From Alphaproteobacteria bacterium (GTDB lineage: Bacteria > Pseudomonadota > Alphaproteobacteria > UBA2966): 64,000 bases of DNA. The position numbers and the translations under genes were made by a program. The notes beneath the pieces are model-generated. The model did no database searches, was not told the origin of the DNA, and saw only the letters and a list, made by a program, of their open reading frames with translations. Positions 1-59,967 of this stretch are shown in pieces. The stretch is taken from the NCBI GenBank assembly GCA_964291395.2, contig OZ219856.1:576001-640000 (forward strand), written 5' to 3'. How positions within the stretch are numbered: the first letter of the stretch is position 1; each line of letters opens with the position of its first letter.

Positions 1-386
1 AAGGTCATCCCCTTCCTGAGCGGCGTCCTGAGTCCCAGCAGCATGATATGCAGGCCGCCGGGCTCGAGCACGACCGTTCCGCCGGCCGGAATCTCGACGG
101 CCTCGACGGGACGCATCTTCATCACGTCTCCCTTCATCTCGTGGGTGTGAAGCTCGGCGCGGTCCGCGATGTAGGTCGACGCGCCGATCAAACGGTCGGT
201 TCGAGACCCGGAGTTGTACACCGTGACGTAGCTCACTCCGTTTCGCGCCTTCAGCGACAGCGAGGCACGCGCCCACGGATGGGTGATCCTGATGTCGCCG
301 GCCGTGATCTCGTGTCCCAGAGAAGCGGGGCTCTGCACCGAGCAGACGGTCAGTATCAGGACGGCGAGGAGAAGGCTGCGACTCAT
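1..386 (-). CDS. Periplasmic copper chaperone PCu(A)C family (partial, runs off window start)
   Basis: Not in the ORF track. Hand translation from ATG at 386: MSRSLLLAVLILTVC..HPWARAS..ELHTHEMKGDVMKMRPV..LEPGGLHIMLLGL, i.e. signal peptide plus the His/Met Cu(I) motif. Confidence 0.9.
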   Translation of the reverse strand, partial: MSRSLLLAVLILTVCSVQSPASLGHEITAGDIRITHPWARASLSLKARNGVSYVTVYNSGSRTDRLIGASTYIADRAELHTHEMKGDVMKMRPVEAVEIPAGGTVVLEPGGLHIMLLGLRTPLRKGMT

Positions 387-535
387 ATCGGTCTCGGGAG
401 ACTGGTGCCGGCGAGCGAGATTATCTCGACGGCGGCCCGCGGTGTCCATGACAGCCGATGATGTCCTCAATATGATACCGCTCGAATCCTTCTCGCTCGG
501 ACGAGCGAGGACGAAAGCAATTGGAAGGGATGGAC

Positions 536-1342
536 ATGGCCCAGGCGTTCTCGATGATCCCGTTACCCCCGGAACGCAGCACGACGAAGCCGCGCATCAA
601 GGGGCGAACGATGATGATGGATTGGGGCATGCCCCTTCGCGAACAGGAAGACCTCTTGAGCCTGATCGCGCCTTACGTGGATATCGCCAAGTTCGTCGTC
701 GGCACGGCCCGCCTCTATGAGGAGGAGTATCTGAGAACGAAGATCGGGGTCTACGAGGACCACCAGATAGAACCCTTTCTCGGCGGCCAGTTCTTCGAGT
801 TCGTGTTCGGCACCCAGGGCGTCGAAGGGGTGAAGCCCTACTGTGAAGAGGCCAAACGCCTGGGTATCGGCGCCATCGAGATTTCGGACAACGTGGTGCC
901 GCTTTCGAGCCGGGATCGCCACGAAATCACGGAGATTGCCGTTGACTGCGGGCTGCACGTCCACGGAGAGGTCGGGTCCAAGCACGACGTGACGACGGCC
1001 GAGACCCTGATCGAGCAGGCGAACGAGTTCTTTGACGCCGGCGCGGACGTCGTTCTCGTCGAGGCTGCCGAACTGGTCGAGGACGGGGAGCCCAACAAGC
1101 CGTTGATCGGCGATCTGGCGAGCGGACTGGACGTCGCCAAGGTGTTCTTCGAGCTCCCCGGAGCATGGATCAAGGGAACCACGACGACCGAGGTGATCTA
1201 TCTCAAGAAGTTCCTGATCGACGAGTTCGGGCCCGACGTCAACATCGCCAACGTGCTGCCGGGCAACGTGTTCGAGACCGAGGCGCTGCGCTCGCATCTG
1301 AGCTTCGCCGGGCCCCGGCAGATGAACCGGGCAGCCGAATAG
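536..1342 (+). CDS. comA: Phosphosulfolactate synthase (ComA) family protein
   Basis: Motifs MMDWG, YVDIAKFVVGT, GGQFFE, EISDN, GEVGSK, FGPDVNIAN, ETEALR. GGAAGG RBS precedes ATG 536. Confidence 0.8.
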   Translation: MAQAFSMIPLPPERSTTKPRIKGRTMMMDWGMPLREQEDLLSLIAPYVDIAKFVVGTARLYEEEYLRTKIGVYEDHQIEPFLGGQFFEFVFGTQGVEGVKPYCEEAKRLGIGAIEISDNVVPLSSRDRHEITEIAVDCGLHVHGEVGSKHDVTTAETLIEQANEFFDAGADVVLVEAAELVEDGEPNKPLIGDLASGLDVAKVFFELPGAWIKGTTTTEVIYLKKFLIDEFGPDVNIANVLPGNVFETEALRSHLSFAGPRQMNRAAE

Positions 1343-1372
1343 GCGGACCCCCCAATTCATGGGGAGCATGGC

Positions 1373-2284
1373 ATGAGGGAACGGCTGGGTTTCGTCGGAT
1401 TGGGCAGCATGGGCGGTCCCATGTGCCTCAACCTTCTCAAGGCCGGATTCGAAGCCACAGTCTTCGACGTCGCCGAAGGCGCCGCGGACCGGCATCTGGA
1501 GGCGGGGGCGAAGCAGGGACAGGGCCTGGGCGACGTGGCGAGAAACAGCGATGTCGTCGTGACCATGCTGCCGAACTCGGGTGACGTGGAAGACGTCGTC
1601 CTGGGTGAGGACGGCGTTTCGGCGCACGCGCGGGAGGGCATGCTCGTCATCGACATGAGTACGATCTTCCCGGAGATGTCGATCAGGGTCGCCGGGGAGC
1701 TCCGGGAGAAGGGCGTCGGCTTCCTCGACGCGGCGGTGGGCCGCACGGCGATGCATGCCGCGGCGGGCACGTCGATGTTCATGGTGGGTGGCTCGACGGA
1801 GGATCTCGAACGCGCGCGGCCCATTCTGGAGGCCATGGGCGATACGATCCATCACTGCGGGCCCGCGGGCAGCGGCGTGCAAACCAAACTGGTCAACAAC
1901 TACATGACCGCGAGTCAGGCCGTAATCACCTCGGAGGCCTTGTCGCTGGCGCGGAAGCTCGGTCTCGATCCCGAGCGGACGGTGGAGATCATGTCCAGCA
2001 CGATGGCGTCGAACGCGCTGGTCTCGTTCTATTTCCCGAGAAAGGCGCTGGCCGGCAACGTCGATCCCGGATTCGCGTTGATGCATGCCCGGAAGGACCT
2101 GACGCTGGCGGTCCGGCTCGGCGAGCAGCAGGATGTCGCTATGGCTACGGGCGCGGCGGCCTTGGACACGTACGACCGCCTCTTCGACGAAGGTCACGGT
2201 CAACGGGACTTCTCATACACGTTGATGGGTGCCTGCGAGGCCGCAGGTGTCGAACCTCCCCGCATCGAGGCGCCCGAGGATTAG
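1373..2284 (+). CDS. NAD(P)-dependent beta-hydroxyacid dehydrogenase, sulfolactaldehyde reductase (YihU)-like
   Basis: GFVGLGSMG Rossmann motif, DMSTI, DAAVGRTAMHAAAG, catalytic KLVNNYM, ARKDL. Confidence 0.85.
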   Translation: MRERLGFVGLGSMGGPMCLNLLKAGFEATVFDVAEGAADRHLEAGAKQGQGLGDVARNSDVVVTMLPNSGDVEDVVLGEDGVSAHAREGMLVIDMSTIFPEMSIRVAGELREKGVGFLDAAVGRTAMHAAAGTSMFMVGGSTEDLERARPILEAMGDTIHHCGPAGSGVQTKLVNNYMTASQAVITSEALSLARKLGLDPERTVEIMSSTMASNALVSFYFPRKALAGNVDPGFALMHARKDLTLAVRLGEQQDVAMATGAAALDTYDRLFDEGHGQRDFSYTLMGACEAAGVEPPRIEAPED

Positions 2285-3426
2285 CTCTGCAGGACCGCGT
2301 CGCTCTTTATCAGCGCCGAGATCTCCGAAGCGTCGAAGCCCCAGTCACGCAGGATTTCTTCGCTGTGCTCGCCCCGCGCGGGCGGCGGGCCGGCAATCTC
2401 CGCCTCGGTGCGGCTGAACCTGGGTGCGGGCGCGGGCTGGTCGACGCCGTCGACGTTCGCGACGGTCTGGCGAGCGGCGATATGCGGATGATCGGCCACT
2501 TCGGATAGCGAGAGGACGGGTGCGACGCAGACTTCCTCGCCGTCGAAGATCCGCGTCCATTCGTCCCGCGTTTTCCGACGGACGACCGCCGCCACCGTTT
2601 CCTTCGTCTTCGGCCAGGCGCCGCGGTCGTGCTGGGGCGGCATTCGCTTGATATCGAGACCGAGGAGGCGCCACGTCCGCTCCCAGAATTTCGCTTCCAC
2701 GGAGCCGATCGCGATCCATTTGCCGTCCCTGGTCTCGTAGGTGTCGTAGAACGGCGAGCCCGTATCGAGGTAGTTGCTCCCGCGCGCGTCAACCCAGTAG
2801 CCGCCGGCGTGAAAGCCGAAGAAGTACGCCATCATCGACGCTGCGGCGTCGATCATGGCGGCGTCGACGATCTGTCCCGTTCCCGACTCCCGTGCTTCGA
2901 GTATGGCGGCCAAAAGCCCCATCGCGAGGTAGGCGCCGCCGCCAAAGTCGCCCACGAGATTGAGCGGCGGTGTCGGCGGCCCGCCCGTGCGGCCGATCGC
3001 GTGCAGAGTCCCGGTCAAGGCGATGTAGTTGATGTCGTGGCCGGGTGCGGAGGCGAGGGGTCCGTCCTGTCCCCAGCCCGTCATGCGGCCGTAGACCAGG
3101 CGGGGATTCCTCTCCATGCAGACGTCCGGACCAAACCCGAGCCGCTCCATGACGCCGGGACGGTAGCCTTCGATCAGCGCGTCGGCCCGATCGACGAGGC
3201 GAAGGACGGCGACTTGGCCGGCCGGGTTCTTGAGATCGACCGCGATGGATCGCCGCCCCCGGTTCATGATCTGCGTCCTGGGATCGTGATCGATGCGCCC
3301 GGCGATCGCCTGCTGCCGGTCGATCCTGATTATCTCGGCGCCCAGATCCGCGAGCAGCATGGCACAGAACGGCGCCGGCCCCAGACCCGCGAACTCGACG
3401 ATCCTGATCCCTTTGAGAGGCCCCAT
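2281..3426 (-). CDS. CaiB/BaiF family III CoA-transferase / alpha-methylacyl-CoA racemase
   Basis: GPLKGIRIVEFAGLGPAPF, GHDINY, GDFGGG, PAPAPRFSRT; start trimmed to MGPLKG. Confidence 0.9.
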   Translation of the reverse strand: MGPLKGIRIVEFAGLGPAPFCAMLLADLGAEIIRIDRQQAIAGRIDHDPRTQIMNRGRRSIAVDLKNPAGQVAVLRLVDRADALIEGYRPGVMERLGFGPDVCMERNPRLVYGRMTGWGQDGPLASAPGHDINYIALTGTLHAIGRTGGPPTPPLNLVGDFGGGAYLAMGLLAAILEARESGTGQIVDAAMIDAAASMMAYFFGFHAGGYWVDARGSNYLDTGSPFYDTYETRDGKWIAIGSVEAKFWERTWRLLGLDIKRMPPQHDRGAWPKTKETVAAVVRRKTRDEWTRIFDGEEVCVAPVLSLSEVADHPHIAARQTVANVDGVDQPAPAPRFSRTEAEIAGPPPARGEHSEEILRDWGFDASEISALIKSDAVLQS

Positions 3427-3739
3427 TGCCTTCCCCCGTACCGCATGTCCCATCGATCGGAGCCGGAACGTTCCTGAGCGAAGCCCGCTCCCGGTTTTGC
3501 AGCGACCTGGCGCTCTCGTCCCAGTGTTGCAAGGCAACGCAGCCTTTCGCAAGTGAGCATCGCTCCGGAACACTTCGGCTTCCCGGGGATGTCGAACCGG
3601 AGCGCTTGAATCCGAGGATCTTCTTGGAGACCGCCTTCAGGCAGGTGGGATCAGGGCAAGCTGGCCGGTGAGTTTCTCCGTCAGATTGGCGTTCGGTGTC
3701 GCGGCGGCCCGTCTCGCCAAGTCGGAACCGCCGAGAATA

Positions 3740-3797
3740 TACTACCAAGTGGTTGAACATCGGATGAGATGCCCTTATATTCAACCGTATGGTTGAA
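3740..3797 (+). promoter_or_regulatory. Putative ArsR autoregulatory operator (two palindromic boxes)
   Basis: Perfect TTCAACC-GTAT-GGTTGAA at 3780-3797 covering the ArsR start codon; imperfect TACTACC-AAGT-GGTTGAA at 3740-3757. Confidence 0.7.
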
Positions 3798-4130
3798 CAG
3801 AACCTCAATCTCGTCTTCCATGCACTTGCAGATCCCACCCGCCGAGCCATCCTCGATCGCCTGGCGGTGGGGGAGGAGACCGTCGGCAGCCTCTCCGAGC
3901 CCTTTTCCATTTCCTTCGCCGCGGTGTCCAAACACCTCGGCGTGCTCGAGCGCGCCGGCCTGGTGACGCGCGAAGCGCGCGGCCGGGAACGGGTGTGCCG
4001 GATCAATCCGGCCGCACTCGAGGACGCCCGCGCCTGGCTCGAATTCCACGAGCGCTTCTGGACTGAACGCTTGGATGCGCTCGACGACTTGATCAACACC
4101 ACCTTCGGCCAGTCGGGCACATCGCGATGA
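3789..4130 (+). CDS. ArsR/SmtB family transcriptional regulator
   Basis: VFHALADPTRRAIL..AVSKHLGVLERAGLV..GRER winged HTH. Confidence 0.92.
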   Translation: MVEQNLNLVFHALADPTRRAILDRLAVGEETVGSLSEPFSISFAAVSKHLGVLERAGLVTREARGRERVCRINPAALEDARAWLEFHERFWTERLDALDDLINTTFGQSGTSR

Positions 4131-4187
4131 CCGTATCCAGACCCACGAGCGCGGACCGCCGCACGGGCCCCCACAGGAGCTGCTGAC

Positions 4188-4637
4188 ATGGCACAGCATC
4201 AGCCGGACGAACGGGAGATCTACCTGACGCTGCATCGCACCCTCGATGCGCCGGTCGAGGCGGTGTACGCCGCGTGGACGGATCCGAAGCTGATGCAGCG
4301 ATGGTTTGCGCCCGGCGATCTCGTGGTGGCCCGGGCGATTGCCCAGGTCGAGGTTGGGGGGACGTTTCTCATCGAGATGCGCGGGGCCGACGGTGAGAAC
4401 CACGTCACCCGCGGCGTCTATCGGGACGTGGTGCCTAACCGTCGCCTGGTGCACACCTGGCGCTGGGAAGGAAGCGATGTGGAATCGCTGGTCACCGTCG
4501 AACTCGAGCCGGAGTCGGCCGGGAGGACGCGCCTTACGCTCACGCATTCCCGATTTGCGAGCGTCGAGGCCCGCGACCAGCATGAGAGAGGCTGGGCGGG
4601 TTGCCTCGCCAAGCTCGAGGCACTCTACGCCGGCTGA
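4188..4637 (+). CDS. SRPBCC (AHSA1-like) domain protein
   Basis: LDAPVEAVYAAWTDP..RLVHTWRW..TRLTLTH..HERGW; usual partner of this ArsR type. Confidence 0.88.
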   Translation: MAQHQPDEREIYLTLHRTLDAPVEAVYAAWTDPKLMQRWFAPGDLVVARAIAQVEVGGTFLIEMRGADGENHVTRGVYRDVVPNRRLVHTWRWEGSDVESLVTVELEPESAGRTRLTLTHSRFASVEARDQHERGWAGCLAKLEALYAG

Positions 4638-4687
4638 GGCGTCCGTGGCGGCCACGGCCCATTTCAAGCAATCAAGGAGACACCCCT

Positions 4688-5335
4688 GTGAAACTTTACT
4701 ACTTCCCGCTGTCCACCTACTCGCAGAAGGTGCTTATCGCGTTGTTCGAGAAAGAGGCCGAGTTCGAGTCCGAGCAGGTGAAGCTGTTCGACGAGGCGGT
4801 ACGCGAGCGCTATCGCAGCGAGATCTATCCGTTGGGGCGCATTCCTCTGCTGGTGCTCGACGACGGCCACCTCATTCCCGAATCCTCGATCATTATCGAA
4901 TATCTCGATGCCAGCTTCGACAATGCGCCGCGGTTGATTCCGGCCGCGCCCGACGAGGCACGCCAGACCCGGTTTCACGACCGCATGCTGGACCTCTACC
5001 TCAACGACTCGATCGCCTCGCTGCTGTTCCAGAGTTGGAAGCCGGAGGAGGCGCGCGACCGGGAGTTGATCGATCGCAGCCGCTTTCGTGCCGGTGTGAT
5101 GTACGACTTCCTGGAGCACCGGCTCGACGGGCGCACCTGGCTGATGGGCGAGGACTTCACCATGGCGGACTGCGCCGCCGGACCGGCGCTGCTCTACGCC
5201 GGGGATATGTTCCCGTTTGCCGAACGTCCGGCGATCGCGGCCTACTGGGAGCGGCTGCGCACGCGCCCGTCCTATGCTCGGGTGCTGGAGGAAGCCGAGC
5301 CTCACCTGCGCGAATTGCGGGAGCGCGCCGCCTGA
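4688..5335 (+). CDS. Glutathione S-transferase family protein
   Basis: GTG start after AAGGAG. KLYYFPLSTYSQKV, PLGRIPLL, ESSIIIEYL, GEDFTMAD, RLRTRPS. Confidence 0.9.
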   Translation: MKLYYFPLSTYSQKVLIALFEKEAEFESEQVKLFDEAVRERYRSEIYPLGRIPLLVLDDGHLIPESSIIIEYLDASFDNAPRLIPAAPDEARQTRFHDRMLDLYLNDSIASLLFQSWKPEEARDRELIDRSRFRAGVMYDFLEHRLDGRTWLMGEDFTMADCAAGPALLYAGDMFPFAERPAIAAYWERLRTRPSYARVLEEAEPHLRELRERAA

Positions 5336-5527
5336 GCGTACGTCCGTACATCGGACGCCCATCGGTATCCGGGTTTCGGGGCTTGACGCCGGACAGGACG
5401 CCGGGTGGCGTGGCCGGGCGAGGGACGCGAGGGGCTGGAGTTTCAGTTCAACTGGAACCACTCTAGATTCCGTCTCGGAATTTGGGTGCGTCCGCGAGCG
5501 CCCGACTTGGGGTACACTGGGCGCCAA

Positions 5528-6954: not shown

Positions 6955-7014
6955 GCGCGCGTCCCTTGTCACGGGGGTGGCCGCATGGCAGTTTCGCGGC
7001 GGGAGGAGCAGCGA

Positions 7015-7752
7015 TTGAGCGGTCAGGAGTCCCTCGCATCGGAGTTCGTGGTCGAAATCTGGCGCGGCCGGGAGTCGGGGAAGTTCGTCTCCTATCGTGT
7101 GCCCCAGCGGGAGAGCCAGACGATCCTGGATGTCGTCTCCCACGTCCAGCGCCGAATCGATCCCACCCTGTCGTACCGGTTCGCGTGCCGGGTCGGCATG
7201 TGCGGCTCGTGCGCCATGACGGTCAACGGCGTTCCCCGCTGGACCTGTCGTACACACGTGGATCGCGTGGCCAAGGACGGGCATATCCGGATCGAGCCGC
7301 TTCGTAATTTGCCGGTCATCCGCGACTTGGCGGTCGACATGGCGCCATTCTTCGACAAATGGCAGCGCGCGACCGGCCGGTTCGTGCCGTCGGACAAGGA
7401 CAACAGGCAAACGTTTGCCCGCGTGCCGCCCGATTCACGGGAGCGGCGGGCGGCCGATGCCGGCATCGAATGCATCGGCTGCGGCGTGTGCTATTCGGCC
7501 TGCGATGTCGTTGCGTGGAATGCGGACTATCTGGGCCCTGCCGCGCTCAACCGCGTATGGACCCTCGTCAACGATTCGCGTGACGGCGGTCGGCGTGAGC
7601 ACCTGGCGGCCGTGGCGGGAGACGCGGGCTGTCATCAGTGCCACAGTCACCAGGCCTGCATGTCGTATTGTCCGAAGGACCTGAACCCGACGGCCGCCAT
7701 CGCCGGGCTGAAACGCGAGACGGTCAAGTCCTTGCTGCGAGGTGAACTGTGA
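7015..7752 (+). CDS. Succinate dehydrogenase/fumarate reductase-like iron-sulfur subunit
   Basis: CRVGMCGSC..C (2Fe-2S), CIGCGVCYSAC, CHSHQACMSYCP, YLGPAAL. TTG start after GGAGGAG; alternative ATG at 6985. Confidence 0.92.
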   Translation: MSGQESLASEFVVEIWRGRESGKFVSYRVPQRESQTILDVVSHVQRRIDPTLSYRFACRVGMCGSCAMTVNGVPRWTCRTHVDRVAKDGHIRIEPLRNLPVIRDLAVDMAPFFDKWQRATGRFVPSDKDNRQTFARVPPDSRERRAADAGIECIGCGVCYSACDVVAWNADYLGPAALNRVWTLVNDSRDGGRREHLAAVAGDAGCHQCHSHQACMSYCPKDLNPTAAIAGLKRETVKSLLRGEL

Positions 7753-8084
7753 CCGGCAGGTTGGAGGTCTGGCTGTACGTCGCGCAGCGGGGGAGCGCGT
7801 TCGTGCTCGCCCCGCTCGTGATCATCCACCTTGCGACCATGATCTACGCCATTCAGGGCGGGTTGTCGGCGGAGGAGATTCTTTCCCGGACCGAGGGGAG
7901 CGCGGTTTGGGGAACCGTGTACGGCCTCTTCGTGGCTGCCGCGGCCGTTCATGCACCGATCGGCGTCCGATCGATCATCAGAGAAATGACTCCCTGGAAG
8001 GGCAGGATGCTTGATTTCGCGGCGCTCCTGTTCGGCACCCTCATCGTCGTTCTGGGCATTCGCGCCGTGGGGGCATTGGTATGA
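7749..8084 (+). CDS. SDH/FRD-like membrane anchor subunit
   Basis: Three hydrophobic segments, QRGSA..IIHL and VHAPIGVR His motifs; translationally coupled to neighbours. Confidence 0.85.
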   Translation: MTGRLEVWLYVAQRGSAFVLAPLVIIHLATMIYAIQGGLSAEEILSRTEGSAVWGTVYGLFVAAAAVHAPIGVRSIIREMTPWKGRMLDFAALLFGTLIVVLGIRAVGALV

Positions 8085-8428
8085 AATACGCCGTCGCATT
8101 GCGCAATCACCCGACCTATTGGGCCTTCGTACTTCACCGGGTATCGGGGTTGGCGCTGGCCGTGTTCGTTCCCGTACATCTCTACACGCTCTCGCTGGCG
8201 GTCCAGGAAGCCGCGCGTTTCGATGCCTTCCTCGAATGGACCGAGGCTCCGGCCGTCAAGGCGGGAGAGGCCCTGCTCGTCCTGTTGCTTGCGGGACACC
8301 TGGTGGGAGGCTTGCGTCTGCTGGCGCTTGAATTCCTGGAATGGCGCGACTGGCAGAAGTCGGTGGTCGCGATCACCGCGGGTGTTGCGGTCGCTTGCGG
8401 GCTGCTGTTTCTTATGAACGCATTTTGA
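8081..8428 (+). CDS. SDH/FRD-like cytochrome b556 membrane subunit
   Basis: LHRVSGLAL..PVHL, GHLVGGLRLL as in SdhC-type anchors. Confidence 0.85.
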   Translation: MKYAVALRNHPTYWAFVLHRVSGLALAVFVPVHLYTLSLAVQEAARFDAFLEWTEAPAVKAGEALLVLLLAGHLVGGLRLLALEFLEWRDWQKSVVAITAGVAVACGLLFLMNAF

Positions 8429-8459
8429 TCGGCTCGCTACCCGAAGACGGACGTCTGAA

Positions 8460-10208
8460 ATGACCGAACATGCCGTTGCCCGTCACAAGACCGACATTCT
8501 GATTCTGGGAAGCGGCGGTGCCGGGCTGTTCGCGGCGCTCCACGCCCATAAGGCGGCGCCGGATCTGGATATCACCGTGGCGGTCAAGGGTCTGCTCGGG
8601 AAGTGCGGTTGCACGCGGATGGTGCAGGGCGGCTACAACGTCGCGATCGGGGCCGGCGACTCGGTCGAGCGTCATTTCATGGACACGATCGAAGGCGGAA
8701 AGTGGCTCAACAACCAGGAACTCGCCTGGACCCTGATCACGACGGCCGTCGAGCGCATACACGAACTCGAGAACGAACTCGGATGTTTCTTCGACCGCAA
8801 TGCGGACGGCTCGATCCATCTGAAGGCGTTTGCGGGGCAGACCTACGATCGGACGGTGCACAAAGGCGACCTCACGGGCATCGAGATCATCAACCGGCTG
8901 GCCGAGCAGGTGTGGGCCCGGCGCATCAACCGAATGGAGGAACATCGCGCCATCGCACTGGTTCCGGCGGACGATGGCAGCCGGATCTCCGGCGTGCTCC
9001 TGATCGATGTCCGGGACGGCCGTTTCCACTTCGTTCAGGCGAAGGCCGTGCTGCTCGCGGCGGGTGGGGGGCCGACGATGTACCGGTACCACACGCCGTC
9101 CGGCGACAAGACCTGTGACGGGATGGCGATGGCGCTGCGCGCGGGATTGGCGCTTCGCGACATGGAAATGATTCAGTTCCATCCGACCGGTCTGATCGCG
9201 GGCCGGGAAACCCGGATCACGGGAACCATCATCGAGGAAGGGCTGCGCGGCGCCGGCGGTCATCTGCTGAACGGGGACCACGACCGTTTCATGGAAAACT
9301 ACGATCCCCGAGGCGAGCGCGCGACCAGGGATATCGTCAGTCGCGCCATGTTCGAGGAAATGCGGCAGGGACGGACAGGACCCAATGACGGTCTGTTCAT
9401 CACGATGCGCCACCTGGACCGCGACCTCGTGCGCCGGCAGTTCAAGGGCATGGTCGAGCGCTGCGCCGACTGCGGGTTCGACCTCGTGGGCGGCCTCGTG
9501 GAAGTCGTTCCGACGGCGCACTACATCATGGGTGGAGTCGAGTTCGATACCTCGTGTCGAACGTCCCTGGAGGGGCTTTTCGCCGCGGGCGAGGACACCG
9601 GCGGCGTTCACGGCGCCAACCGGCTCGGCGGCAACGGCGTTGCAAACTCGACCGTATTCGGCGGCATCGCCGGCGACGTGATGGGGCCTTGGGTCATGAA
9701 GGAGGGGGCGTTCGTCGATCCGGACCGGTCCGTGATCGACGCCGCGGTCGGGTACAGTTTGCATCCGTTCGCCAAACCCCAAGGCGACCTGCTCGACATG
9801 CGGGAGCGACTCGAAGACATCATGTGGGACGACGTGGGAATCATTCGTGATCCGGAACGCCTACGCCGTGCGCGCCGGTCCCTGGCCGAGCTCAGAGAGG
9901 AACTCTCGGAAACCGGCGTGGCGGCGTCGGATCCTGCGTTCAACCTGACGTGGCACGACTGGCTGAACCTGGACAGCCTCATTCTCGTGAGCCAGGCCAT
10001 CACCGAAGCCGCCTTGGCGCGGGAGAACTCGCGCGGCGCCCATTTCCGCGAGGACTTTCCGGAGGAGGGCGACTTCGCGGCGTCGTATTTCACCACCGCA
10101 CGATTGGACGGTGAGGGCATCGATGTCGAAACTGCCCCGGTCGAATTTTCTCGAGTCGAGCCGGGAGAAACGCTGATACGTGAAGAAGCGGAAACGGCCG
10201 CAGCATAG
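8460..10208 (+). CDS. SDH/FRD/L-aspartate oxidase family flavoprotein subunit (atypical)
   Basis: LGSGGAG, QFHPTG, TRDIVSRA, HYIMGG, HGANRLGGN, RENSRGAHFREDFP. Confidence 0.92.
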   Translation: MTEHAVARHKTDILILGSGGAGLFAALHAHKAAPDLDITVAVKGLLGKCGCTRMVQGGYNVAIGAGDSVERHFMDTIEGGKWLNNQELAWTLITTAVERIHELENELGCFFDRNADGSIHLKAFAGQTYDRTVHKGDLTGIEIINRLAEQVWARRINRMEEHRAIALVPADDGSRISGVLLIDVRDGRFHFVQAKAVLLAAGGGPTMYRYHTPSGDKTCDGMAMALRAGLALRDMEMIQFHPTGLIAGRETRITGTIIEEGLRGAGGHLLNGDHDRFMENYDPRGERATRDIVSRAMFEEMRQGRTGPNDGLFITMRHLDRDLVRRQFKGMVERCADCGFDLVGGLVEVVPTAHYIMGGVEFDTSCRTSLEGLFAAGEDTGGVHGANRLGGNGVANSTVFGGIAGDVMGPWVMKEGAFVDPDRSVIDAAVGYSLHPFAKPQGDLLDMRERLEDIMWDDVGIIRDPERLRRARRSLAELREELSETGVAASDPAFNLTWHDWLNLDSLILVSQAITEAALARENSRGAHFREDFPEEGDFAASYFTTARLDGEGIDVETAPVEFSRVEPGETLIREEAETAAA

Positions 10209-10253
10209 GCACGCCCGGCGGGGGCCTCCGGCCGGGCGCGATTGAGGTTGAGA

Positions 10254-11225
10254 ATGATCAAACAGGATGCCATTGGCGAAGCCGCGCAGGAGATCATGCG
10301 CCGGGCCGCCATCGTGATCCCCGAGGACTACAAGTCCGGGATCCGAAAAATGGTCAAGGAAGAGGAAAACGAGCTTAGCCGGTTCGTCCTGGAGGCGATG
10401 TGCGAGAACTGGGACGTCGCCGAAGAGGACCGCCGAGCCATGTGCGCCGACACCGGGTTGCCGCGCTACTACGTGAAAGTCGGGAACGAGGCGCGGGTCG
10501 AAGGCGGGATGGTCGCGCTCGAGCGGACATTGCGCCGAGCGACGGCGCAGGCCACTCGGGACATCCCGCTCCGGCCCAATCGCGTCCATCCGCTATCCCG
10601 GGTCGATCACAACAACAACGTCGGCATCCTGGCGCCCGAGATCGAATACTCCTTCGAGCCCGGCGCCGACTGGATCGACATAACGTCGGTGCACAAAGGG
10701 GGCTTGTTCGGCAGCGACTACCGTATGCTCTTTCCGGGTGACGGCATCGACGGGATCAAGAGGTTCTTCCTCGACGTGATGCTCGAATTCGGGCGCCGGG
10801 GCCTCGCCTGCCAGCCGGCCATCGTCGGGGTGGGTCTCGGGGGCAGCAAGGACACGGCGATGACGATCGGAAAGCAGGCGGCGTGCCTGCGGGTCGTGGG
10901 CGATCGCAGCCCGGACCCCGAGATCGCGGCGCTGGAGGAAGAGCTGATGGAGATGGGCAACAACATCGGCATGGGACCCATGGGATTCGTCGGGAAGTCC
11001 ATGGTGGTCGACTGCCACGTCGAGGTCGCGTACACCCATACCGGCGGCATGCCGATGAGCGTGCACAGCTTCTGCCTGTCGTCCCGCCGCGCCGTCGCGC
11101 GCATCGGCGCGGGCGGTGAAGTCGGCTACCGAACCGATCCGCAGTGGTTCACCCCGTACCACCGGCGAAGCGGCGTAGAATGGGAGGGTGAAACGCCCGG
11201 CCTTGATCAGGCGGTGGCGCAGTGA
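10254..11225 (+). CDS. Class I Fe-S hydro-lyase (fumarate/tartrate family) alpha subunit
   Basis: MCADTG, LRPN, KGG, ACQPAIVGVGLGG, IGMGPMG, C-terminal CLSSRR; three cluster Cys. Confidence 0.88.
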   Translation: MIKQDAIGEAAQEIMRRAAIVIPEDYKSGIRKMVKEEENELSRFVLEAMCENWDVAEEDRRAMCADTGLPRYYVKVGNEARVEGGMVALERTLRRATAQATRDIPLRPNRVHPLSRVDHNNNVGILAPEIEYSFEPGADWIDITSVHKGGLFGSDYRMLFPGDGIDGIKRFFLDVMLEFGRRGLACQPAIVGVGLGGSKDTAMTIGKQAACLRVVGDRSPDPEIAALEEELMEMGNNIGMGPMGFVGKSMVVDCHVEVAYTHTGGMPMSVHSFCLSSRRAVARIGAGGEVGYRTDPQWFTPYHRRSGVEWEGETPGLDQAVAQ

Positions 11226-11881
11226 AGACCAAACGGATCACACTTCCACTGACCGACGAGGCTCTGGACGGGCTCGAGCTGGGCACGGCGGTCTATCTCG
11301 ACGGTGTCGTCTACACGGGTCGCGAGGGTCTCTACAAACGGGTCCTGGATCAGGGAGTGGAACCGCCCGTACCTTTCGATTCACTCGGCAATGCGAACTT
11401 CCACTGCTCCCCCGCCGCGTCGGTCAACGACGACGGCACCTACAACCTGGGCGCGGTGACGGCGACGGCCAGCTTTCGTTTCGCTCGATGGCTTTCACAA
11501 TGGTTCGAGGCGTCGGGTTGCCGGGTCATCATCGGCAAGGGAGGCATGACGGAGGAGGACTACCGCACGCACTTCGTTCCAAACCGGGCGATCTACCTGT
11601 CCACGGTCGGTTACGGGACTGGCGCCCTGCTGGGCCGGGGCATCAAGCGGGTCATCGACGTGCACTGGCTGGAAGAGCTGGGTATCGCGCAGGCGATGTG
11701 GGTGCTCGACGTGGAGAATTTCGGCCCATTCCTCGTCGAAAGTGATTCCCGGGGCAACAGCTTGTTCGAACGCGAGGGCCGGGCCATCAATCAGCGGGTT
11801 GATGGTCTCTACGACGGGTTGAGGCAGCCGGCCCTCAAACGCTATGGCGAGACGACCTCACGTTCCGACGAGGTCGTGTGA
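11222..11881 (+). CDS. Class I Fe-S hydro-lyase beta subunit (FumA C-term/TtdB-like)
   Basis: LDGVVYTGRE, FHCSP, TATASFRF, IIGKGGM, WLEELG, FGPFLVESDSRGNSLF. Confidence 0.88.
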   Translation: MKTKRITLPLTDEALDGLELGTAVYLDGVVYTGREGLYKRVLDQGVEPPVPFDSLGNANFHCSPAASVNDDGTYNLGAVTATASFRFARWLSQWFEASGCRVIIGKGGMTEEDYRTHFVPNRAIYLSTVGYGTGALLGRGIKRVIDVHWLEELGIAQAMWVLDVENFGPFLVESDSRGNSLFEREGRAINQRVDGLYDGLRQPALKRYGETTSRSDEVV

Positions 11882-13853: not shown

Positions 13854-14213
13854 GGGTTCAGCTACGTGGGTGGTTGTCGGAATGCACGCGTCTTGTAACG
13901 GGAACCACCCGCGCTCGGCACCCGACTTCGAAGTCTGGTGTTCCTCGGCGAAAACTCATGTATGCGGACTCGCGATTGAACGGCGCGTAAGCCGTGCCGC
14001 CGTCAGGATAATCCGTCCGCCGATATGGAGCGGTATTGCCGATGCTCTTGGCCGACGAAACCTTTCTCAGGATACTATACGCGTTTGGTCCGGGGATACA
14101 TTGCGGGCTCTGAAGAGCGGTACGGAATGCCGGGGTGGAACGGCACGCCGGAGTCTCGCGGACTGTTCCGATGTTCCCGACGACGATCGAACCGACGTGG
14201 ATGAGGGTGTCCG

Positions 14214-15062
14214 GTGGCTTTGAAAATCAGCCAGCTATCGCCGGTATTGGGGGCGGAGGCGACCGACGTCAAACTCGCCGCGGGGATTTCCGGGGCAGAG
14301 TTCGAGGTCCTGTTTCAGGCTTGGCTCGACCACAACGGCATTCTGGTCATACGGGACCAGGAACTGACGCACGATCAGCACATCGAGTTCAGCCGGCGGT
14401 TCGGGGAACTCGACCGTCACGTGGTCACCCAATTCGTGCCTGACGGTTATCCGGAGCTGTACCGGGTTTCGAACCAGGAGGACGAGCAAGGCAGATACCT
14501 GGGCAACCCGCAGGCTGGAAATCACTGGCATACGGACAATTCCTATCTCGATCCGCCGGCCAAGGCGTCACTGCTCCATGCGGTCGAGGTTCCTCCGGTC
14601 GGCGGCGACACAATGTTCACGAGCATGTACCGGGCGTACGAATCCCTGTCTCCGGCGATGCGGGAAATGCTTTCCGGCCTGAGCGCCGAGCATTGCTTCG
14701 AACATACGCTTTCGAATTTTTCGACCTTCAAGGCGACGGACCGTCAGATCGAAATCACGCCGCCCGTCAGGCACCCGGTGGTGTCCACGCACCCGGACAC
14801 CGGGCGCAAATCCCTCTACGTGAATCCCGGCTTCACGACCCGCATCATCGGGATGAATGCCGACGAGAGCGAAGCTCTTCTGACCTTTTTGTTCACGCAC
14901 GCGACGCAACCGCAGTTCATTTATCGGCATCGCTGGCGCAAGCATGACCTCGTCATTTGGGACAACCGTTGCACGATGCATTACGCCGTTCAGGACTTTT
15001 ACGATCAGGGGGTGCGCGACCTGTACCGCACCACCGTCAAGGGTGAAAAGGCGGCTGCATAA
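14214..15062 (+). CDS. TauD/TfdA family Fe(II)/2-oxoglutarate dioxygenase
   Basis: WHTD, GGDTMF, HPVVSTHPDTGRKSLYVN, WDNRCTMH, RDLYRTTV. Confidence 0.93.
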   Translation: MALKISQLSPVLGAEATDVKLAAGISGAEFEVLFQAWLDHNGILVIRDQELTHDQHIEFSRRFGELDRHVVTQFVPDGYPELYRVSNQEDEQGRYLGNPQAGNHWHTDNSYLDPPAKASLLHAVEVPPVGGDTMFTSMYRAYESLSPAMREMLSGLSAEHCFEHTLSNFSTFKATDRQIEITPPVRHPVVSTHPDTGRKSLYVNPGFTTRIIGMNADESEALLTFLFTHATQPQFIYRHRWRKHDLVIWDNRCTMHYAVQDFYDQGVRDLYRTTVKGEKAAA

Positions 15063-15223
15063 CGGATGGCTCTCGCTCTCCCCGACCTCGCCGCGATGGG
15101 ACCACGTCGGAACGGAGCTCGGCACCCTTGTCACGGTGGCCGCGCGTCGGCTAGACCATGATCCACCGTCGGTGTCGCTACCGACCGTCGATATCACCCG
15201 ATGCTCGAGGAGTTGCCGCCAGA

Positions 15224-16069
15224 ATGGGCTTCACGATCAATTCGCTCTCACCGGTTCTCGGCGCCGAGGTCGTCGGCCTCGATCTGTCGTCACCGATTTC
15301 CGATGCCGAATTCACGGAGCTCAACCAGGCCTGGCTTGATCACAACGGCGTGCTCGTCATCCGTGACCAAACCCTGACGCCGGATGAGCACGTCGCGTTC
15401 AGCAAACGTCTGGGAGAACTGGAAGTGCACGTGGTCGGGCAGTTCCTGCTTGATGGTTACCCGGAGATCTATCGCGTTTCAACCAAGGTAGACGACGACG
15501 GAAGGCCGATGGGCAATCCGGAGTCGGGGCGATACTGGCACTCCGATCTTTCGTACTTGGAACGGCCGTCCAAGGCGTCGCTCCTTTACGCGCTGGAACT
15601 GCCGCCGAGCGGTGGCGATACCATGCTGGCCAGCATGTATGCCGCCTATGACTCGTTGTCGCCGACCATGAAGGAAATGCTCGAGGGCCTGACCGCCGTC
15701 CACGACCTCGGACACGTGGGCAGGCTGTTCTCCACGGGGGGTCCGAACCAGGAGCAAACGGCGAAGACCCCGCCCGTCGAGCACCCCATCGTGAGGACTC
15801 ATCCGGAAACGGGAAGAAAGGCGTTGTTCGTCAATCCTGGCTTCACGACGCACATCGTCCAATTGGCGAGGTCGGAGAGCGGCGCCTTGCTCGAGTTCCT
15901 GTTCGCTCACGCCACGAAGCCGGAATTCGTCTACCGGCACAGGTGGCGGCTGAACGATCTTTTGGTGTGGGACAACCGTTGCACGGTGCATCACGCCGTC
16001 CACGACTTTCACGGCACCGGCCATCGCCACATGCACCGGACGACCGTTCTCGGCGAGGCGGCCCTTTAG
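15224..16069 (+). CDS. TauD/TfdA family dioxygenase (tandem paralogue)
   Basis: WHSD, HPIVRTHPETGRKALFVN, WDNRCTVHHA, RHMHRTTV. Confidence 0.93.
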   Translation: MGFTINSLSPVLGAEVVGLDLSSPISDAEFTELNQAWLDHNGVLVIRDQTLTPDEHVAFSKRLGELEVHVVGQFLLDGYPEIYRVSTKVDDDGRPMGNPESGRYWHSDLSYLERPSKASLLYALELPPSGGDTMLASMYAAYDSLSPTMKEMLEGLTAVHDLGHVGRLFSTGGPNQEQTAKTPPVEHPIVRTHPETGRKALFVNPGFTTHIVQLARSESGALLEFLFAHATKPEFVYRHRWRLNDLLVWDNRCTVHHAVHDFHGTGHRHMHRTTVLGEAAL

Positions 16070-57140: not shown

Positions 57141-58202
57141 ATGAAGCTCCTCGTTCTCCCCGGTGACGCCATCGGGCCCGAAATCGTCGGCGCCGCGCTC
57201 GATGTCCTGAAGGCCGCCGACAGCGCGTTCGGCCTCGGCCTCGAGCTCGAGGAAGCCCCGGTCGGTCTCGATGCCCTGGAGCGGCTGGGCACGACCCTTC
57301 CCGACGAAACTCTCGACCGCGTCTTCGCCAGCGACGGGGTGATCCTGGGGCCGCAGCACAATGTCGCCTACCCGCCGCCGGACAAGGGCGGGAGGAACGT
57401 TTCGGCGACGATCCGCAAGCGTCTCGACCTCTTCGCCAACGTCCGGCCGAGCCGCGGACGCCCCGGTGTGCCGGCGCCGGCGCCCGGCATCGACGTGGTC
57501 ATCGTGCGGGAGAATACCGAGGGCTTCTATGCGGATCGCTCGATGGCCCTGGGATCGGGCGAGTTCATGCCGACGGACGATGTGGCGCTGGCGGTCCGCA
57601 AGATCACCCGCGAAGGCTCGCGCCGTGTCGCCGAGGAGGCCTGCCGCATCGCCGCGTCGCGCAGCCGCAGGCTCGCGGTCGTGCACAAGGCGAACGTCCT
57701 GAGCCTGACCGACGGGTTGTTTCGGGACACGGCGTTTTCCGTGGCCGGGCAGCACGGCGGACTGGAGGTCGAGGAATACCTCGTCGATGCCATGGCGGCC
57801 CTTTTGGTTCGCCAACCCGATGCGTTCGATGTGATCGTGACGACCAACATGTTCGGGGACATCCTGTCCGATCTGACCGCTGAACTGTCGGGCGGCCTGG
57901 GACTGGGGCCATCGATCAACGCGGGCCGGGAACGTGCCATCGCCCAGGCGGCCCACGGCGCGGCGCCCGATATCGCCGGGCGGGGTGTCGCCAATCCGAC
58001 GGCCATGATTCTTTCGGTCGCCATGCTGTTGGACTGGCTGGGACTGAAACACGGTCGGGACGATTTGCGGCGGGCCGCCGGCGGCATGGACCGTGCGGTC
58101 GACGGGCAGCTCGCCGACCCGGAGGGCCGGACCGCCGATCTCGGCGGCCCGCTGGGGACCGCGGCCTTCGGATCCGGGGTCGCTTCGCGGATCAGCGCCT
58201 GA
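57141..58202 (+). CDS. Isocitrate/isopropylmalate/tartrate dehydrogenase family protein
   Basis: LPGDAIGPE, RKRLDLFANVRP, RENTEGFY, VHKANV, NMFGDILSD, HGAAPDIAG..ANP. Confidence 0.92.
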   Translation: MKLLVLPGDAIGPEIVGAALDVLKAADSAFGLGLELEEAPVGLDALERLGTTLPDETLDRVFASDGVILGPQHNVAYPPPDKGGRNVSATIRKRLDLFANVRPSRGRPGVPAPAPGIDVVIVRENTEGFYADRSMALGSGEFMPTDDVALAVRKITREGSRRVAEEACRIAASRSRRLAVVHKANVLSLTDGLFRDTAFSVAGQHGGLEVEEYLVDAMAALLVRQPDAFDVIVTTNMFGDILSDLTAELSGGLGLGPSINAGRERAIAQAAHGAAPDIAGRGVANPTAMILSVAMLLDWLGLKHGRDDLRRAAGGMDRAVDGQLADPEGRTADLGGPLGTAAFGSGVASRISA

Positions 58203-59823
58203 CGATCGGCGCCGGGTTCCCTTCGATCATCACGTTGATGCAGGCGGGCTTGCCGCTGGCGTGAGCCCGCGCCAGCGCTGCGGGGAGCTGTCCCGGCCGG
58301 GTCACGAGTTCTCCGTGCGCGCCGAGCGCCTCCGCGACCAAGTCGTATCGCGTCGGCAGCAGTTCGCAGCCGTGCACCCGATTTTCTCCGTAGTCGCGGA
58401 TCTGGATCTGATGTTCGGCGTTCCAGCGAGCGTCGTTGCCGACGACGGCGATCAGCGGGAGATCGCAGCGGATCGCGGTGTCTAGTTCGGCGAGGTGGTA
58501 CCCGAAGGCGCCGTCCCCCGAAATGGAGATGACCGGCGCCTCCCTCTCGACCGTGCAGGCCGCAAGGCCGAAGGGGATGGCGGAACCGATTGACCCCGCG
58601 ACGCCGTTGATGATGCGCCGTTCCGAGTCGAGCATGCTCTGCGACCACTGGCCGATCTCGCCTCCGTCGCACACGAGCACGGTGTCCGGATTCTCCGCCA
58701 TGAATTCCCGAACGCCGCGACAGAAATCGAGCGCGTGGAGCGCTCCGTCACCGTTTGCCGTCGTGGTCTCCCAGTCGGGAGGACGATAGTCCACGGCGGC
58801 GCGTACCTCGGCGCGCCAAGCGTCGTCGCCGCACGCCGAACCGAGCGCCGCGAGTTCCGCGGCCGCCGCCGAGGGGGTCGCCACGCCGCTCAGGATCAGG
58901 CGTTCGCCCATGTCCCGCGCCACGCGGCGGATCAGTTCGACATCCGCGTCGAGCATGATGAATTTGCAGGCCGGATCGAAGGCTGGCGCCTCGCCGAACC
59001 GAAGCGTGAAATCGAGGGGCTTGCCGAGCAGCACCAGGAGATCGGTCTGCCGGACGACCTCCGCGATGGCGCCGAGCGCGGGATCATTGAGCCCGCGCGG
59101 GCTCTCCATCCCGATCACGGGAACGTTCAGGGTGTCTTCCAGCTTCCGTGCCGCGGCCCGGCCCGGCCGGGAGCAGAGAGTCGGGCCGCCGACGATCACG
59201 GGGCGTTCCGCCGCGGCGATGGCGGAGAGCGCCGCGGACGCCGCCGTCTCGCCCAATGGAGAGGCCGCGGGTTCGAAGGCGGATCCTTCCGGCCACAGGG
59301 ACGGCTCGTCAGCGAGTTCCGCGTCGAGGACGTCGGATGGCAGGCTGAGGTGGACGGGTCCCGGGCGTCCCGAAGCGGCGGTCCGGGCGGCGCGCGCGAG
59401 ATCGTGGCCCAAGTCCGCCGCCCGCCCGACCGTCCAGGAGTCCTTGGCGACGGTCGCGGCCATCGCCGCCTGCGGCAGTTCCTGAAATCCGCCCCGGCCG
59501 ATCTCGTGGGTGGCGGCGTGCCCCGACAGCAGGATCATGGGGGTTTCCGAGGCCATGGGGGTGCAGAGAGCCGCGGCCGCGTTGGTATGACCCGGCCCGC
59601 CCGTGACGAGGGCGACACCGACTCTGCCGGTCAGACGGGCCCAGGCGCTTGCCATGAACACCGCGGCTGCCTCCTGGCGGACGTGAAGGAGCTCCAGCCT
59701 CGTGCCGATCGCGGCGTCGTAGATCGACATGATGTGGTTTCCCGACAGCGAGAAAATCGTATGCATTCCCGCTTTTTCGAGTGTCCGGGCCACGATGTCG
59801 GCTCCGCGCAGGGTCTTCGTCAT
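58192..59823 (-). CDS. Thiamine-diphosphate-dependent enzyme (ALS/2-hydroxyacyl-CoA lyase family)
   Basis: VRQEAAAVFMA, TGGPGHTN, FQE, GRPGPVHL, ThDP motif GDGAFG..GND. Confidence 0.9.
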   Translation of the reverse strand: MTKTLRGADIVARTLEKAGMHTIFSLSGNHIMSIYDAAIGTRLELLHVRQEAAAVFMASAWARLTGRVGVALVTGGPGHTNAAAALCTPMASETPMILLSGHAATHEIGRGGFQELPQAAMAATVAKDSWTVGRAADLGHDLARAARTAASGRPGPVHLSLPSDVLDAELADEPSLWPEGSAFEPAASPLGETAASAALSAIAAAERPVIVGGPTLCSRPGRAAARKLEDTLNVPVIGMESPRGLNDPALGAIAEVVRQTDLLVLLGKPLDFTLRFGEAPAFDPACKFIMLDADVELIRRVARDMGERLILSGVATPSAAAAELAALGSACGDDAWRAEVRAAVDYRPPDWETTTANGDGALHALDFCRGVREFMAENPDTVLVCDGGEIGQWSQSMLDSERRIINGVAGSIGSAIPFGLAACTVEREAPVISISGDGAFGYHLAELDTAIRCDLPLIAVVGNDARWNAEHQIQIRDYGENRVHGCELLPTRYDLVAEALGAHGELVTRPGQLPAALARAHASGKPACINVMIEGNPAPIVRR

Positions 59824-59967
59824 GATTGCTCCGTCAAGTGATCGTGGGGGCGCGAGCGGGCGACGGCGGACTCGGTCGCCCCCGTCCCTTATATCCCATC
59901 CTCGCTCCATTCATGCCATCCTTCAGCCCTTCAACGGATCGCTCGGCAACGGAGAGGGGACGTCGAC

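Follow-up and report, generated by a model that had tools for sequence, protein, structure and literature searches.

A ComA homologue beside a YihU-like dehydrogenase

What does a homologue of ComA, an enzyme known from coenzyme M synthesis, do directly upstream of a dehydrogenase resembling YihU, the sulfolactaldehyde reductase of sulfoglycolysis? Such a gene pair occupies positions 536 to 2284 of the 64,000-nucleotide stretch of alphaproteobacterial DNA analysed here (the window; contig OZ219856.1, positions 576,001 to 640,000). An earlier note on the window proposed that the pair makes or remodels C3 sulfonates, or that sulfite is added to or removed from an acceptor other than phosphoenolpyruvate (PEP). 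The ComA homologue belongs to a large, uncharacterised clade of the ComA family (PF02679). Its phosphate-side motifs are lost, and its relatives lie within gene clusters for sulfonate degradation; it is therefore probably a sulfonate-catabolic enzyme, as yet uncharacterised, and not a coenzyme M synthase. We hold with moderate confidence that the clade takes part in organosulfonate catabolism, that it is not a phosphosulfolactate (PSL) synthase, and that it probably releases sulfite. The locus comprises the following elements:

448..476, + strand: promoter-like site ATGACA-17-TATGAT, 5' of the ComA-like gene, recognised by consensus alone (10 of 12 matches)
536..1342, + strand: ComA-family gene (PF02679; 268 amino acids), of a non-canonical clade
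1343..1372, + strand: intergenic spacer of 30 base pairs (bp) with a GGGGAG ribosome-binding site and no terminator-like site
1373..2284, + strand: YihU-like β-hydroxyacid dehydrogenase gene (303 amino acids), with a GRT motif and KLVNNYMT

A listing of open reading frames (ORFs) confirms that the two genes are co-directional and 30 bp apart, and all the motifs quoted in the earlier note (DAAVGRTAMHAAAG, KLVNNYM, GEVGSK, VEAAE and HLSFAG) are found in the translations. In this listing, a TTG at 521 is an alternative open start of the ComA-like ORF; GGAAGGG precedes the ATG at 536 and backs the latter as the start. The ComA-like gene ends with a stop codon at 1340-1342, the next ATG lies at 1373, GGGGAG is found 6 nucleotides 5' of this ATG, and a scan for terminator-like sites between the two genes found none. 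Promoter-like sites in positions 1-7200 number 6, compared with a mean of 0.8 in shuffled sequences. Contigs from RNA libraries (four runs, two studies) cover portions of the ComA-like gene, and one of them, X18, spans 1298-1506, i.e., the junction between the two genes. Since RNA libraries can hold DNA and the contigs show no transcript ends, X18 is a weak hint of co-transcription; the dehydrogenase gene is probably co-transcribed with the ComA-like gene. In runs labelled as sponge metagenomes, at least half of the words sampled from this stretch are present, and the records of close relatives are those of uncultured Alphaproteobacteria.

The ComA-like protein departs from known PSL synthases

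The ComA-like protein matches PF02679 with 181.9 bits (E 1.8e-53) and the ComA equivalog model TIGR03849 with 144.7 bits, under the cut-off of 280. Its AlphaFold2 (AF2) model (pLDDT 90.9) is closest to the known members of the family: Foldseek aligned it to Methanocaldococcus jannaschii ComA (1QWG) with E 4.8e-19, TM-scores of 0.80/0.85 and 28% identity, and to Bacillus subtilis YitD (1U83) with TM-scores of 0.75/0.88, and other barrels reached only approx. 0.5. Motifs were compared in alignments to these two proteins and to Xanthobacter XcbB, which has been demonstrated to make PSL (accessible part of PMC9457059). The retained features are EISD, the E..E pair, and EVGxK, whose Lys is catalytic. 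In particular, catalytic Lys137 and acidic residues E103, E133, E168, and E171 (M. jannaschii numbering, from the alignment) are all kept, and residues E115, E145, K149, E176, and E179 are invariant among 42 clade sequences.

Other parts of the active site are changed. At the position of Arg170, the references read IEGRE (1QWG) and EARE (1U83 and XcbB) and the ComA-like protein reads VEAAE (clade consensus VEGAE), an exchange of Arg for Ala; the Gly-rich loop of 6-7 residues behind Arg170 is deleted; and Arg244 of the reference GLR is replaced by Ser in HLS (clade consensus GLS). The Arg170, loop, and Arg244 changes are clade-wide in alignments of 42 and of 10 sequences. Moreover, the ComA-like protein and its clade carry an 11-residue insertion ahead of the FGP.VN.AN motif, and DKG of the PSL synthase references is DWG in the ComA-like protein. 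The suspicion that conserved Arg positions are altered in this homologue is thus upheld: the combination of E-x-R-E, a Gly-rich loop, and a C-terminal-side G-L-R is common to 1QWG, 1U83, and XcbB and is not found in the ComA-like protein.

The genomic setting does not resemble that of coenzyme M synthesis. ComB (PF04029) has no match in the whole genome, which is 98.1% complete, and neither an XcbC-like neighbour nor XcbC/D/E partners of the ComA-like gene were found in the window; Ldh_2 (ComC-type) homologues are present elsewhere in the genome. Pfam scans of the larger window ORFs agree with the initial remark that the window holds no comB, comC, or sulfoglycolysis genes. By these tests the protein, although it folds like ComA, does not qualify as a PSL synthase: motifs are lost, the score lies below the equivalog cut-off, and ComB is missing. 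As the barrel, Lys137, and the acidic residues are kept, a C2 carbanion or enolate beside a carboxylate should still be stabilisable, and a substrate other than PEP, one of the possibilities raised at the outset, is plausible.

Gene neighbourhoods of the ComA-like clade

The clade comprises at least 1206 database proteins (E<=1e-10), annotated by default as phosphosulfolactate synthase throughout. Among 401 genomes of the class, only 6, including the genome studied here, have a ComA match at E<=1e-20. Neighbourhoods were collected from 11 loci in genomes and 80 loci in metagenomes, the latter being the best 80 of 228 confirmed relatives. Eight of these loci are close (ComA at 88-91% identity) and 83 are distant (49-65%). 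Window proteins were placed on the loci by tblastn; neighbour ORFs were clustered, and the clusters were named by Pfam and NCBIfam. Since a GC3-based ORF caller overlooked ComA in 13 of 92 loci, all counts were taken from tblastn.

The neighbour families recovered at the 83 distant loci, with the number of loci for each, are as follows:

Sulfatase, often directly adjacent to the ComA-like gene: 23
TauD family: 22
SsuA-type binding protein with ABC partners: 21
DUF3604: 16
Metallo-β-lactamase (MBL)-fold hydrolase: 12
SdhC/D-like: 12
SdhB-like: 11
SuyB: 10
TctC: 10
Type II haloacid dehalogenase (HAD): 9
TauE: 7
2HADH: 5
ComC-like Ldh_2: 3

Six of these families are linked to sulfonates, namely SuyB, TauE, Ldh_2, sulfatase, TauD, and the SsuA-type binding protein. 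Of the 59 distant loci whose flank extends to 4 kb or more, 43 contain one or more of them; dereplication of ComA at 85% identity leaves 34 groups, of which 23 do so. For random 16.8-kb windows from the genome studied here, a background that is itself sulfonate-rich, the corresponding share is 15%. The supposed link to sulfonate chemistry is thus strongly backed by the neighbourhoods of the homologues.

In the most elaborate arrangement, approx. 12 loci share a string in which a GntR gene is followed by SuyA, SuyB, SdhB, SdhC, SdhD, TauE, and the ComA-like gene (with DUF3604 or sulfatase) and which continues with TctC, in some cases ABC genes, FumA, FumB, and SdhA, and in some cases TctC and Ldh_2. 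SuyB of these strings shares 79% identity with the UxaA-type gene located after hpsN-hpsO in Cupriavidus pinatubonensis, in what we take to be the characterised cluster for 2,3-dihydroxypropane-1-sulfonate (DHPS) and SuyAB. Other contexts are more varied. A sulfite-oxidase-family gene lies directly after the ComA-YihU pair in the close relative L017. Locus L087 has the order ComA, SsuA-type binding protein, DUF3604, YihU-like dehydrogenase, aldehyde dehydrogenase, with no SuyAB in its 11.8 kb, and can be read as an alcohol to aldehyde to acid route that ends at a sulfo-carboxylate. Loci L006-L011 carry sugar-acid dehydratase and aldolase sets near the ComA-like gene; the homologue on a Chelativorans plasmid (59% identical) is accompanied by DUF3604, an ABC transporter, a lactonase, and dehydrogenase genes; and a CocE/NonD hydrolase adjoins the ComA-like gene in Arthrobacter.

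Could the ComA-like protein nevertheless be a true PSL synthase, which joins PEP and sulfite either to scavenge sulfite set free by enzymes of the TauD or SuyAB type or to make sulfolactate or DHPS as an osmolyte? The Pfam match, the ComA fold, the retained catalytic Lys and Glu residues, and the annotation of the database relatives are in keeping with it. A neighbouring hydrolase (sulfatase, DUF3604, or HAD) would then replace ComB, with the YihU-like enzyme reducing a downstream aldehyde, and the varied adjacent hydrolases (sulfatase 23, DUF3604 16, MBL 12, and HAD 9 of 83; CocE/NonD in Arthrobacter) might provide such a phosphatase step. However, Arg170, the Gly-rich loop, and Arg244 of all three references are absent, the score is under the equivalog cut-off, and the genome has no ComB. 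Moreover, where SuyAB is encoded in the same operon, using PEP to remake the substrate of SuyAB would amount to a futile cycle, and the sulfite exporter and importer genes suit catabolism. A PSL synthase is thus highly improbable. Of the C3-sulfonate route proposed at the outset, the sulfonate link stands, with catabolism likelier than the making of C3 sulfonates.

Two further observations concern DUF3604 and the ComA family in this genome. The DUF3604 protein (approx. 750 amino acids), which also occurs near the ComA-like gene on the Chelativorans plasmid (L106:23576-25915), has a counterpart in the genome studied here (L099, G000:C1:1593001-1608000, 6630-11041) beside a TauE sulfite exporter, a Rieske protein, and a TauD-like gene; DUF3604 is a candidate sulfonate-pathway enzyme. 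The genome also encodes a second ComA-family protein (G000:C1:2306848-2307564; L014:9816-10610), which is 33% identical and likewise without the Arg and the loop. Its gene lies among those for hydantoinase A/B, two FAD_binding_2 proteins, two Asp/Glu-racemase-family proteins, and one protein of the PEP-mutase/isocitrate lyase (ICL) family, and it groups with a Bradyrhizobium plasmid gene that comes after PrpD and PrpF genes. It represents a different branch, probably a non-sulfonate one.

A putative sulfite-eliminating reaction

From family membership, motif changes, gene order, and neighbourhood statistics, we infer the substrate, direction, and stereochemistry of a possible reaction. The substrate would be a non-phosphorylated 3-sulfo-carboxylate, most likely 3-sulfolactate or a near analogue, and possibly the S-enantiomer of sulfolactate, which SuyAB does not take. 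The ComA reaction would run in reverse: abstraction of the α-proton would be followed by β-elimination of sulfite, yielding pyruvate. A ComA-type active site without the phosphate-side residues would fit such an elimination. The varied contexts of the clade (L087, L006-L011, the Chelativorans plasmid, and the Sdh-like/fumarase-like pair described below) can be read as sharing pathways expected to lead to sulfolactate or a closely related compound. The YihU-type dehydrogenase would interconvert a sulfonated alcohol and its aldehyde (DHPS/sulfolactaldehyde or 3-hydroxypropanesulfonate/3-sulfopropionaldehyde) and would feed the route of the ComA-like lyase. SuyAB is R-specific and the product of sulfoglycolysis is S-sulfolactate (accessible part of PMC12421959); hence, an S-specific lyase or a racemase would explain the co-occurrence with SuyAB.

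The second of these options belongs to a rival explanation, in which the clade serves the same catabolic pathways without C-S cleavage, as a cofactor-free C2 racemase or epimerase (converting S- to R-sulfolactate) or as a sulfoacrylate hydratase or isomerase. Proton transfer at C2 of a carboxylate is the chemistry of ComA, and the gene stands in one operon with SuyAB in 10 of the 83 loci. The sulfolactate racemisation described in the accessible part of PMC12421959 uses two dehydrogenases, SlcC and ComC, and these are mostly missing at the loci (Ldh_2 in 3 and 2HADH in 5 of 83). However, many loci, e.g., L087, L024-L034, and the window group, have no SuyAB in the available flank, and a single general acid/base Lys is evident in the protein. 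A racemase or isomerase is therefore rather improbable, and sulfite elimination is the reading preferred here.

The YihU-like dehydrogenase

The dehydrogenase matches PF03446 (147.9 bits) and PF14833 (92.1 bits). Its top NCBIfam model is NF012005, sulfolactaldehyde 3-reductase, with 252.6 bits (under the cut-off of 348), ahead of 2-hydroxy-3-oxopropionate reductase (217.4 bits) and the 3-hydroxyisobutyrate models, and among solved structures its best match is E. coli YihU (6SM7, 194 bits). In the HMMER alignment, the Lys of KLVNNYMT falls on the catalytic K171 of YihU. The motif G-R-T occupies the positions of YihU G122-R123-T124, where usual family members have S-G-G, and KLVNNYMT aligns to YihU 171-178, with the Lys and the sulfonate-pocket Asn kept and Ser178 conservatively replaced by Thr. 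The predicted sulfonate pocket is nearly intact. In a quick maximum-likelihood tree of 31 rows, the dehydrogenase is placed together with E. coli YihU in a clade of 28 rows (SH-aLRT 98), and E. coli GarR and GlxR lie outside it, the outgroup sample being small and without MmsB. The assignment as YihU-like thus holds in the solved structures, the NCBIfam models, the motifs, and the tree, which was also the check suggested for it, apart from the omission of MmsB. Scans of the window found no sulfoglycolysis genes (isomerase, kinase, aldolase, or sulfoquinovosidase). Identification as the (S)-sulfolactate dehydrogenase SlcC was considered and dropped; SlcC is not a β-hydroxyacid dehydrogenase and belongs to the D-2-hydroxyacid dehydrogenase family (accessible part of PMC6303947).

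Is the pairing itself conserved? The dehydrogenase follows ComA in five of the eight close loci (L001, L004, L005, L016, and L017). In L002 and L003 it is missing, and ComA is directly followed by a convergent family III CoA-transferase gene, which in the window lies downstream of the dehydrogenase:

2281..3453, - strand: family III CoA-transferase (PF02515, 307.8 bits; no NCBIfam equivalog reached)

Locus L015 ends without downstream DNA, leaving seven informative close loci. Among the distant loci, a relative of the dehydrogenase is found in 1 of 83, namely L087, where it lies on the same strand 3.4 kb downstream, is 43% identical, and carries the motifs GRT and KLVNNYLT, and none of the 67 distant loci having at least 1 kb downstream carries one within 1.5 kb of ComA. 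The ComA-YihU-like association thus occurs in 2 of the 34 dereplicated groups. Since the window group and L087 belong to different well-supported subclades of the ComA tree, the association arose or survived twice. The idea of a conserved two-gene module therefore does not extend beyond the local lineage: the pairing holds for 5 of the 7 close relatives that are informative but for only 1 of the 83 distant loci, and the partners conserved around the clade are different genes. The YihU-like dehydrogenase is an accessory gene of a genus-level lineage. The database protein P0145 (377 amino acids), in which a C-terminal ComA-like part is in frame with a YihU-like gene (79% identity), was considered as a true fusion of the two and rejected; it starts in mid-ComA and ends out of frame and is likely an assembly or gene-call artefact.

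In a rival explanation, the two genes are unrelated neighbours, the ComA-like protein acting on a non-sulfonate carboxylate, as the family members next to PrpD/PrpF or hydantoinase genes may do, and the dehydrogenase being a 4-hydroxybutyrate/succinic-semialdehyde or other 3-hydroxyacid type that works with the CoA-transferase. Apart from the absence of the pairing in 2 of 7 informative close relatives and in 82 of 83 distant loci, this explanation draws on another pair of a GR-motif dehydrogenase and a family III CoA-transferase in the genome (L102), on distant ComA-family members in tricarboxylate-type contexts, and on the names of the relatives: those at 44-80% identity are called '4-hydroxybutyrate dehydrogenase/sulfolactaldehyde 3-reductase' by the Joint Genome Institute (JGI). 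However, the two genes are separated by only 30 bp with a ribosome-binding site and no terminator, and the pairing appears again in the second ComA subclade, in which the dehydrogenase of L087 has GRT and KLVNNYLT. Moreover, sulfonate genes are enriched around the clade, a sulfite-oxidase-family gene comes after the pair in L017, and the other GR-motif dehydrogenases of the genome also adjoin TauE or TauD genes. That the genes are merely neighbours is thus unlikely.

Sdh-like and fumarase-like genes of the window

Five kb downstream of the pair, the window contains a set of genes that recurs at ComA-like loci:

6985..8428, + strand: SdhB-, SdhC-, and SdhD-like subunits of a non-housekeeping succinate dehydrogenase/fumarate reductase-type complex
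8460..10208, + strand: SdhA-like flavoprotein (best NCBIfam model thiol:fumarate reductase TfrA, under cut-off)
10242..11881, + strand: class I (Fe-S) fumarase/tartrate-dehydratase-type hydrolyase, alpha and beta subunits

The set is also present in 4 of the 8 close loci and is tied to ComA in two separate subclades of the ComA tree. Orthologues of the window SdhBCD-like genes flank the ComA-like gene in distant loci, and the fumarase-like pair is co-located with it in L067, L068, L075, L077, L086, and L092. The window SdhA-like protein is 72-78% identical to those of the distant ComA/SuyAB/TauE operons, compared with 49% and 33% to the two other copies in its own genome, which has two SdhA/B sets besides that of the window.

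At the position of E. coli SdhA His45, the SdhA-like protein carries Cys (KCGCTRM), and at that of Thr254 it carries Glu (IIEEGL), with His242, Arg286, His354, and Arg399 (E. coli SdhA numbering) retained; the same Cys/Glu pattern is found in the SdhA-like proteins of L002, L068, and L077 and in the own paralogue L098:7703-9484. We take His45 of E. coli SdhA to be the residue of covalent FAD attachment. The pattern suggests flavin attachment other than through His and an altered substrate.

These genes allow a wider, more doubtful proposal, in which the clade would be a new metal-dependent C-S lyase family whose substrate is supplied by the Sdh-like/fumarase-like and YihU-like steps. The ComA-like enzyme would desulfonate sulfolactate, perhaps the S-form, or a sister 3-sulfo-carboxylate. 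Upstream, 3-sulfopropanoate would be converted to sulfoacrylate and then to sulfolactate, a sulfonate copy of the succinate to fumarate to malate sequence, and the YihU-like enzyme would carry out the aldehyde step. Conversion of 3-sulfopropanoate to sulfolactate via sulfoacrylate is mentioned, in the accessible part of PMC11489063, as known from a thesis only.

Two side observations bear on these protein types. A second class I fumarase-like alpha/beta pair (L097, G000:C3:675001-690000, 2877-9365) is divergent to an SsuA-type ABC importer and a TauD gene and is another link of this hydrolyase type to sulfonate uptake. A third SdhA/SdhB-like pair, without membrane subunits (L098, G000:C1:1060001-1076000, 3708-11063), stands in a string that includes a class III aminotransferase, an acyl-CoA synthetase, an enoyl-CoA hydratase, and a 3-hydroxyisobutyrate dehydrogenase (HIBADH)-family gene.

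Several observations weigh against a sulfonate-catabolic, sulfite-releasing role of the clade. None of the six sulfonate-linked families was found in the available flank of 11 of the 34 groups, and the Chelativorans plasmid locus has no annotated sulfatase, TauD, SuyAB, or TauE. Scans of the window found neither SuyAB nor TauE in the vicinity of the pair, and no sulfatase or aldehyde dehydrogenase there either. Distant family members stand beside PrpD/PrpF or hydantoinase genes; thus, the family is not confined to sulfonates. As several operons already have SuyAB, a second sulfolactate lyase would be redundant unless it differed in stereochemistry or substrate. The argument from the lost Arg170 presumes that this residue contacts the phosphate/anion in ComA. 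The name 4-hydroxybutyrate dehydrogenase is also in use for enzymes of the YihU type; hence, the substrate of the dehydrogenase could be a carboxylate. The SdhA-like protein, judging from its residues, may not be a simple succinate-type dehydrogenase.

Comparison with known systems and significance

With ComA, XcbB, and YitD (EC 4.4.1.19; 1QWG, 1U83), the ComA-like protein shares the Pfam family, the fold, EISD, EVGxK, and the E..E pair. However, it is just 29-30% identical to XcbB, and its gene is found in a catabolic sulfonate context and not among coenzyme M genes. The dehydrogenase shares GRT and KLxNNYM with YihU (EC 1.1.1.373; 6SM7), apart from the Thr in place of Ser178. In contrast to the YihU system, the window has no yihS/T/V/Q-type genes, and the enzyme is likely oxidative or active on another sulfonated alcohol; its counterpart in L087 adjoins an aldehyde dehydrogenase. 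The reaction of SuyAB (EC 4.4.1.24), sulfolactate to pyruvate and sulfite, is the one proposed for the ComA-like protein, and SuyAB orthologues, TauE, and TctC-type binding proteins occur in the same operons. The folds are unrelated, SuyAB being of the UxaA/altronate-dehydratase type. The sulfolactate/DHPS clusters of Chromohalobacter salexigens, C. pinatubonensis, and Paracoccus share with the ComA-like loci SuyAB, a ComC-like Ldh_2, a binding protein of the tripartite tricarboxylate transporter (TTT) family, a sulfite exporter, and a GntR- or LacI-type regulator (accessible part of PMC12421959). In contrast, the literature found mentions no ComA homologue, Sdh-like complex, class I fumarase-like enzyme, or DUF3604 there.

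A literature search, which covered few subscription journals and no supplements, found no description of a ComA homologue in sulfonate degradation and, within the same limits, no Sdh-like 3-sulfopropanoate dehydrogenase, no Sdh/Fum association of this kind, and no function of DUF3604. What appears to be new, as judged from sequence, is a ComA-family clade that combines a changed active site with a catabolic context. The C3 sulfonates DHPS, sulfolactate, and 3-sulfopropanoate make up a large share of marine and soil organic sulfur. To our knowledge, few C-S-cleaving enzymes for C3 sulfonates are known, namely SuyAB, CuyA, Xsc, glycyl-radical lyases, and oxygenases. If the ComA-like protein is a desulfonating enzyme, 'comA' matches in metagenomes are being misread as sulfonate or coenzyme M biosynthesis, and a missing route for sulfolactate enantiomers or 3-sulfopropanoate becomes testable. 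Should the wider proposal with the Sdh-like/fumarase-like steps be true, it would provide the first genetic basis of 3-sulfopropanoate/3-hydroxypropanesulfonate degradation; degradation of 3-sulfopropanoate is called unpublished in the accessible part of PMC11489063. The ComA-like enzyme is small and soluble and cultured carriers exist (the Chelativorans plasmid); thus, it is simple to test.

Other genes of the window and genome

The CoA-transferase gene is convergent with that of the dehydrogenase, with a 4-bp overlap and a start at 3453 or 3573, and is present in 6 of the 8 close loci. Elsewhere in the genome, a family III CoA-transferase is the partner of another dehydrogenase with a GR motif (DAAVGRL; L102, G000:C1:2175001-2189000, 2557-8716), and this pair adjoins TauE, a radical SAM protein, and a gamma-glutamyltranspeptidase; therefore, the dehydrogenase/CoA-transferase pairing of the window recurs in this genome. 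Between the CoA-transferase gene and two Sel1-repeat genes, positions 3789-6954 contain genes for an ArsR-type regulator, an AHSA1/SRPBCC protein, and a glutathione S-transferase (GST). These look inserted in the genome studied here, because tblastn placed them in 0 of the 8 close loci.

The genome is rich in organosulfur functions: tblastn found 27 TauD-like, 8 sulfatase-like, 4 SsuA-like, 2 SuyB-like, and 5 sulfite-oxidase-family places. Two further elements of the window are related to such functions or to ComA-like operons:

14205..16069, + strand: two TauD-family dioxygenase genes (taurine dioxygenase model 244 and 266 bits, cut-off 313)
58192..59910, - strand: thiamine pyrophosphate (TPP)-dependent enzyme, 51% identical to the TPP enzyme in the SuyAB-Sdh-ComA operon of L067/L068

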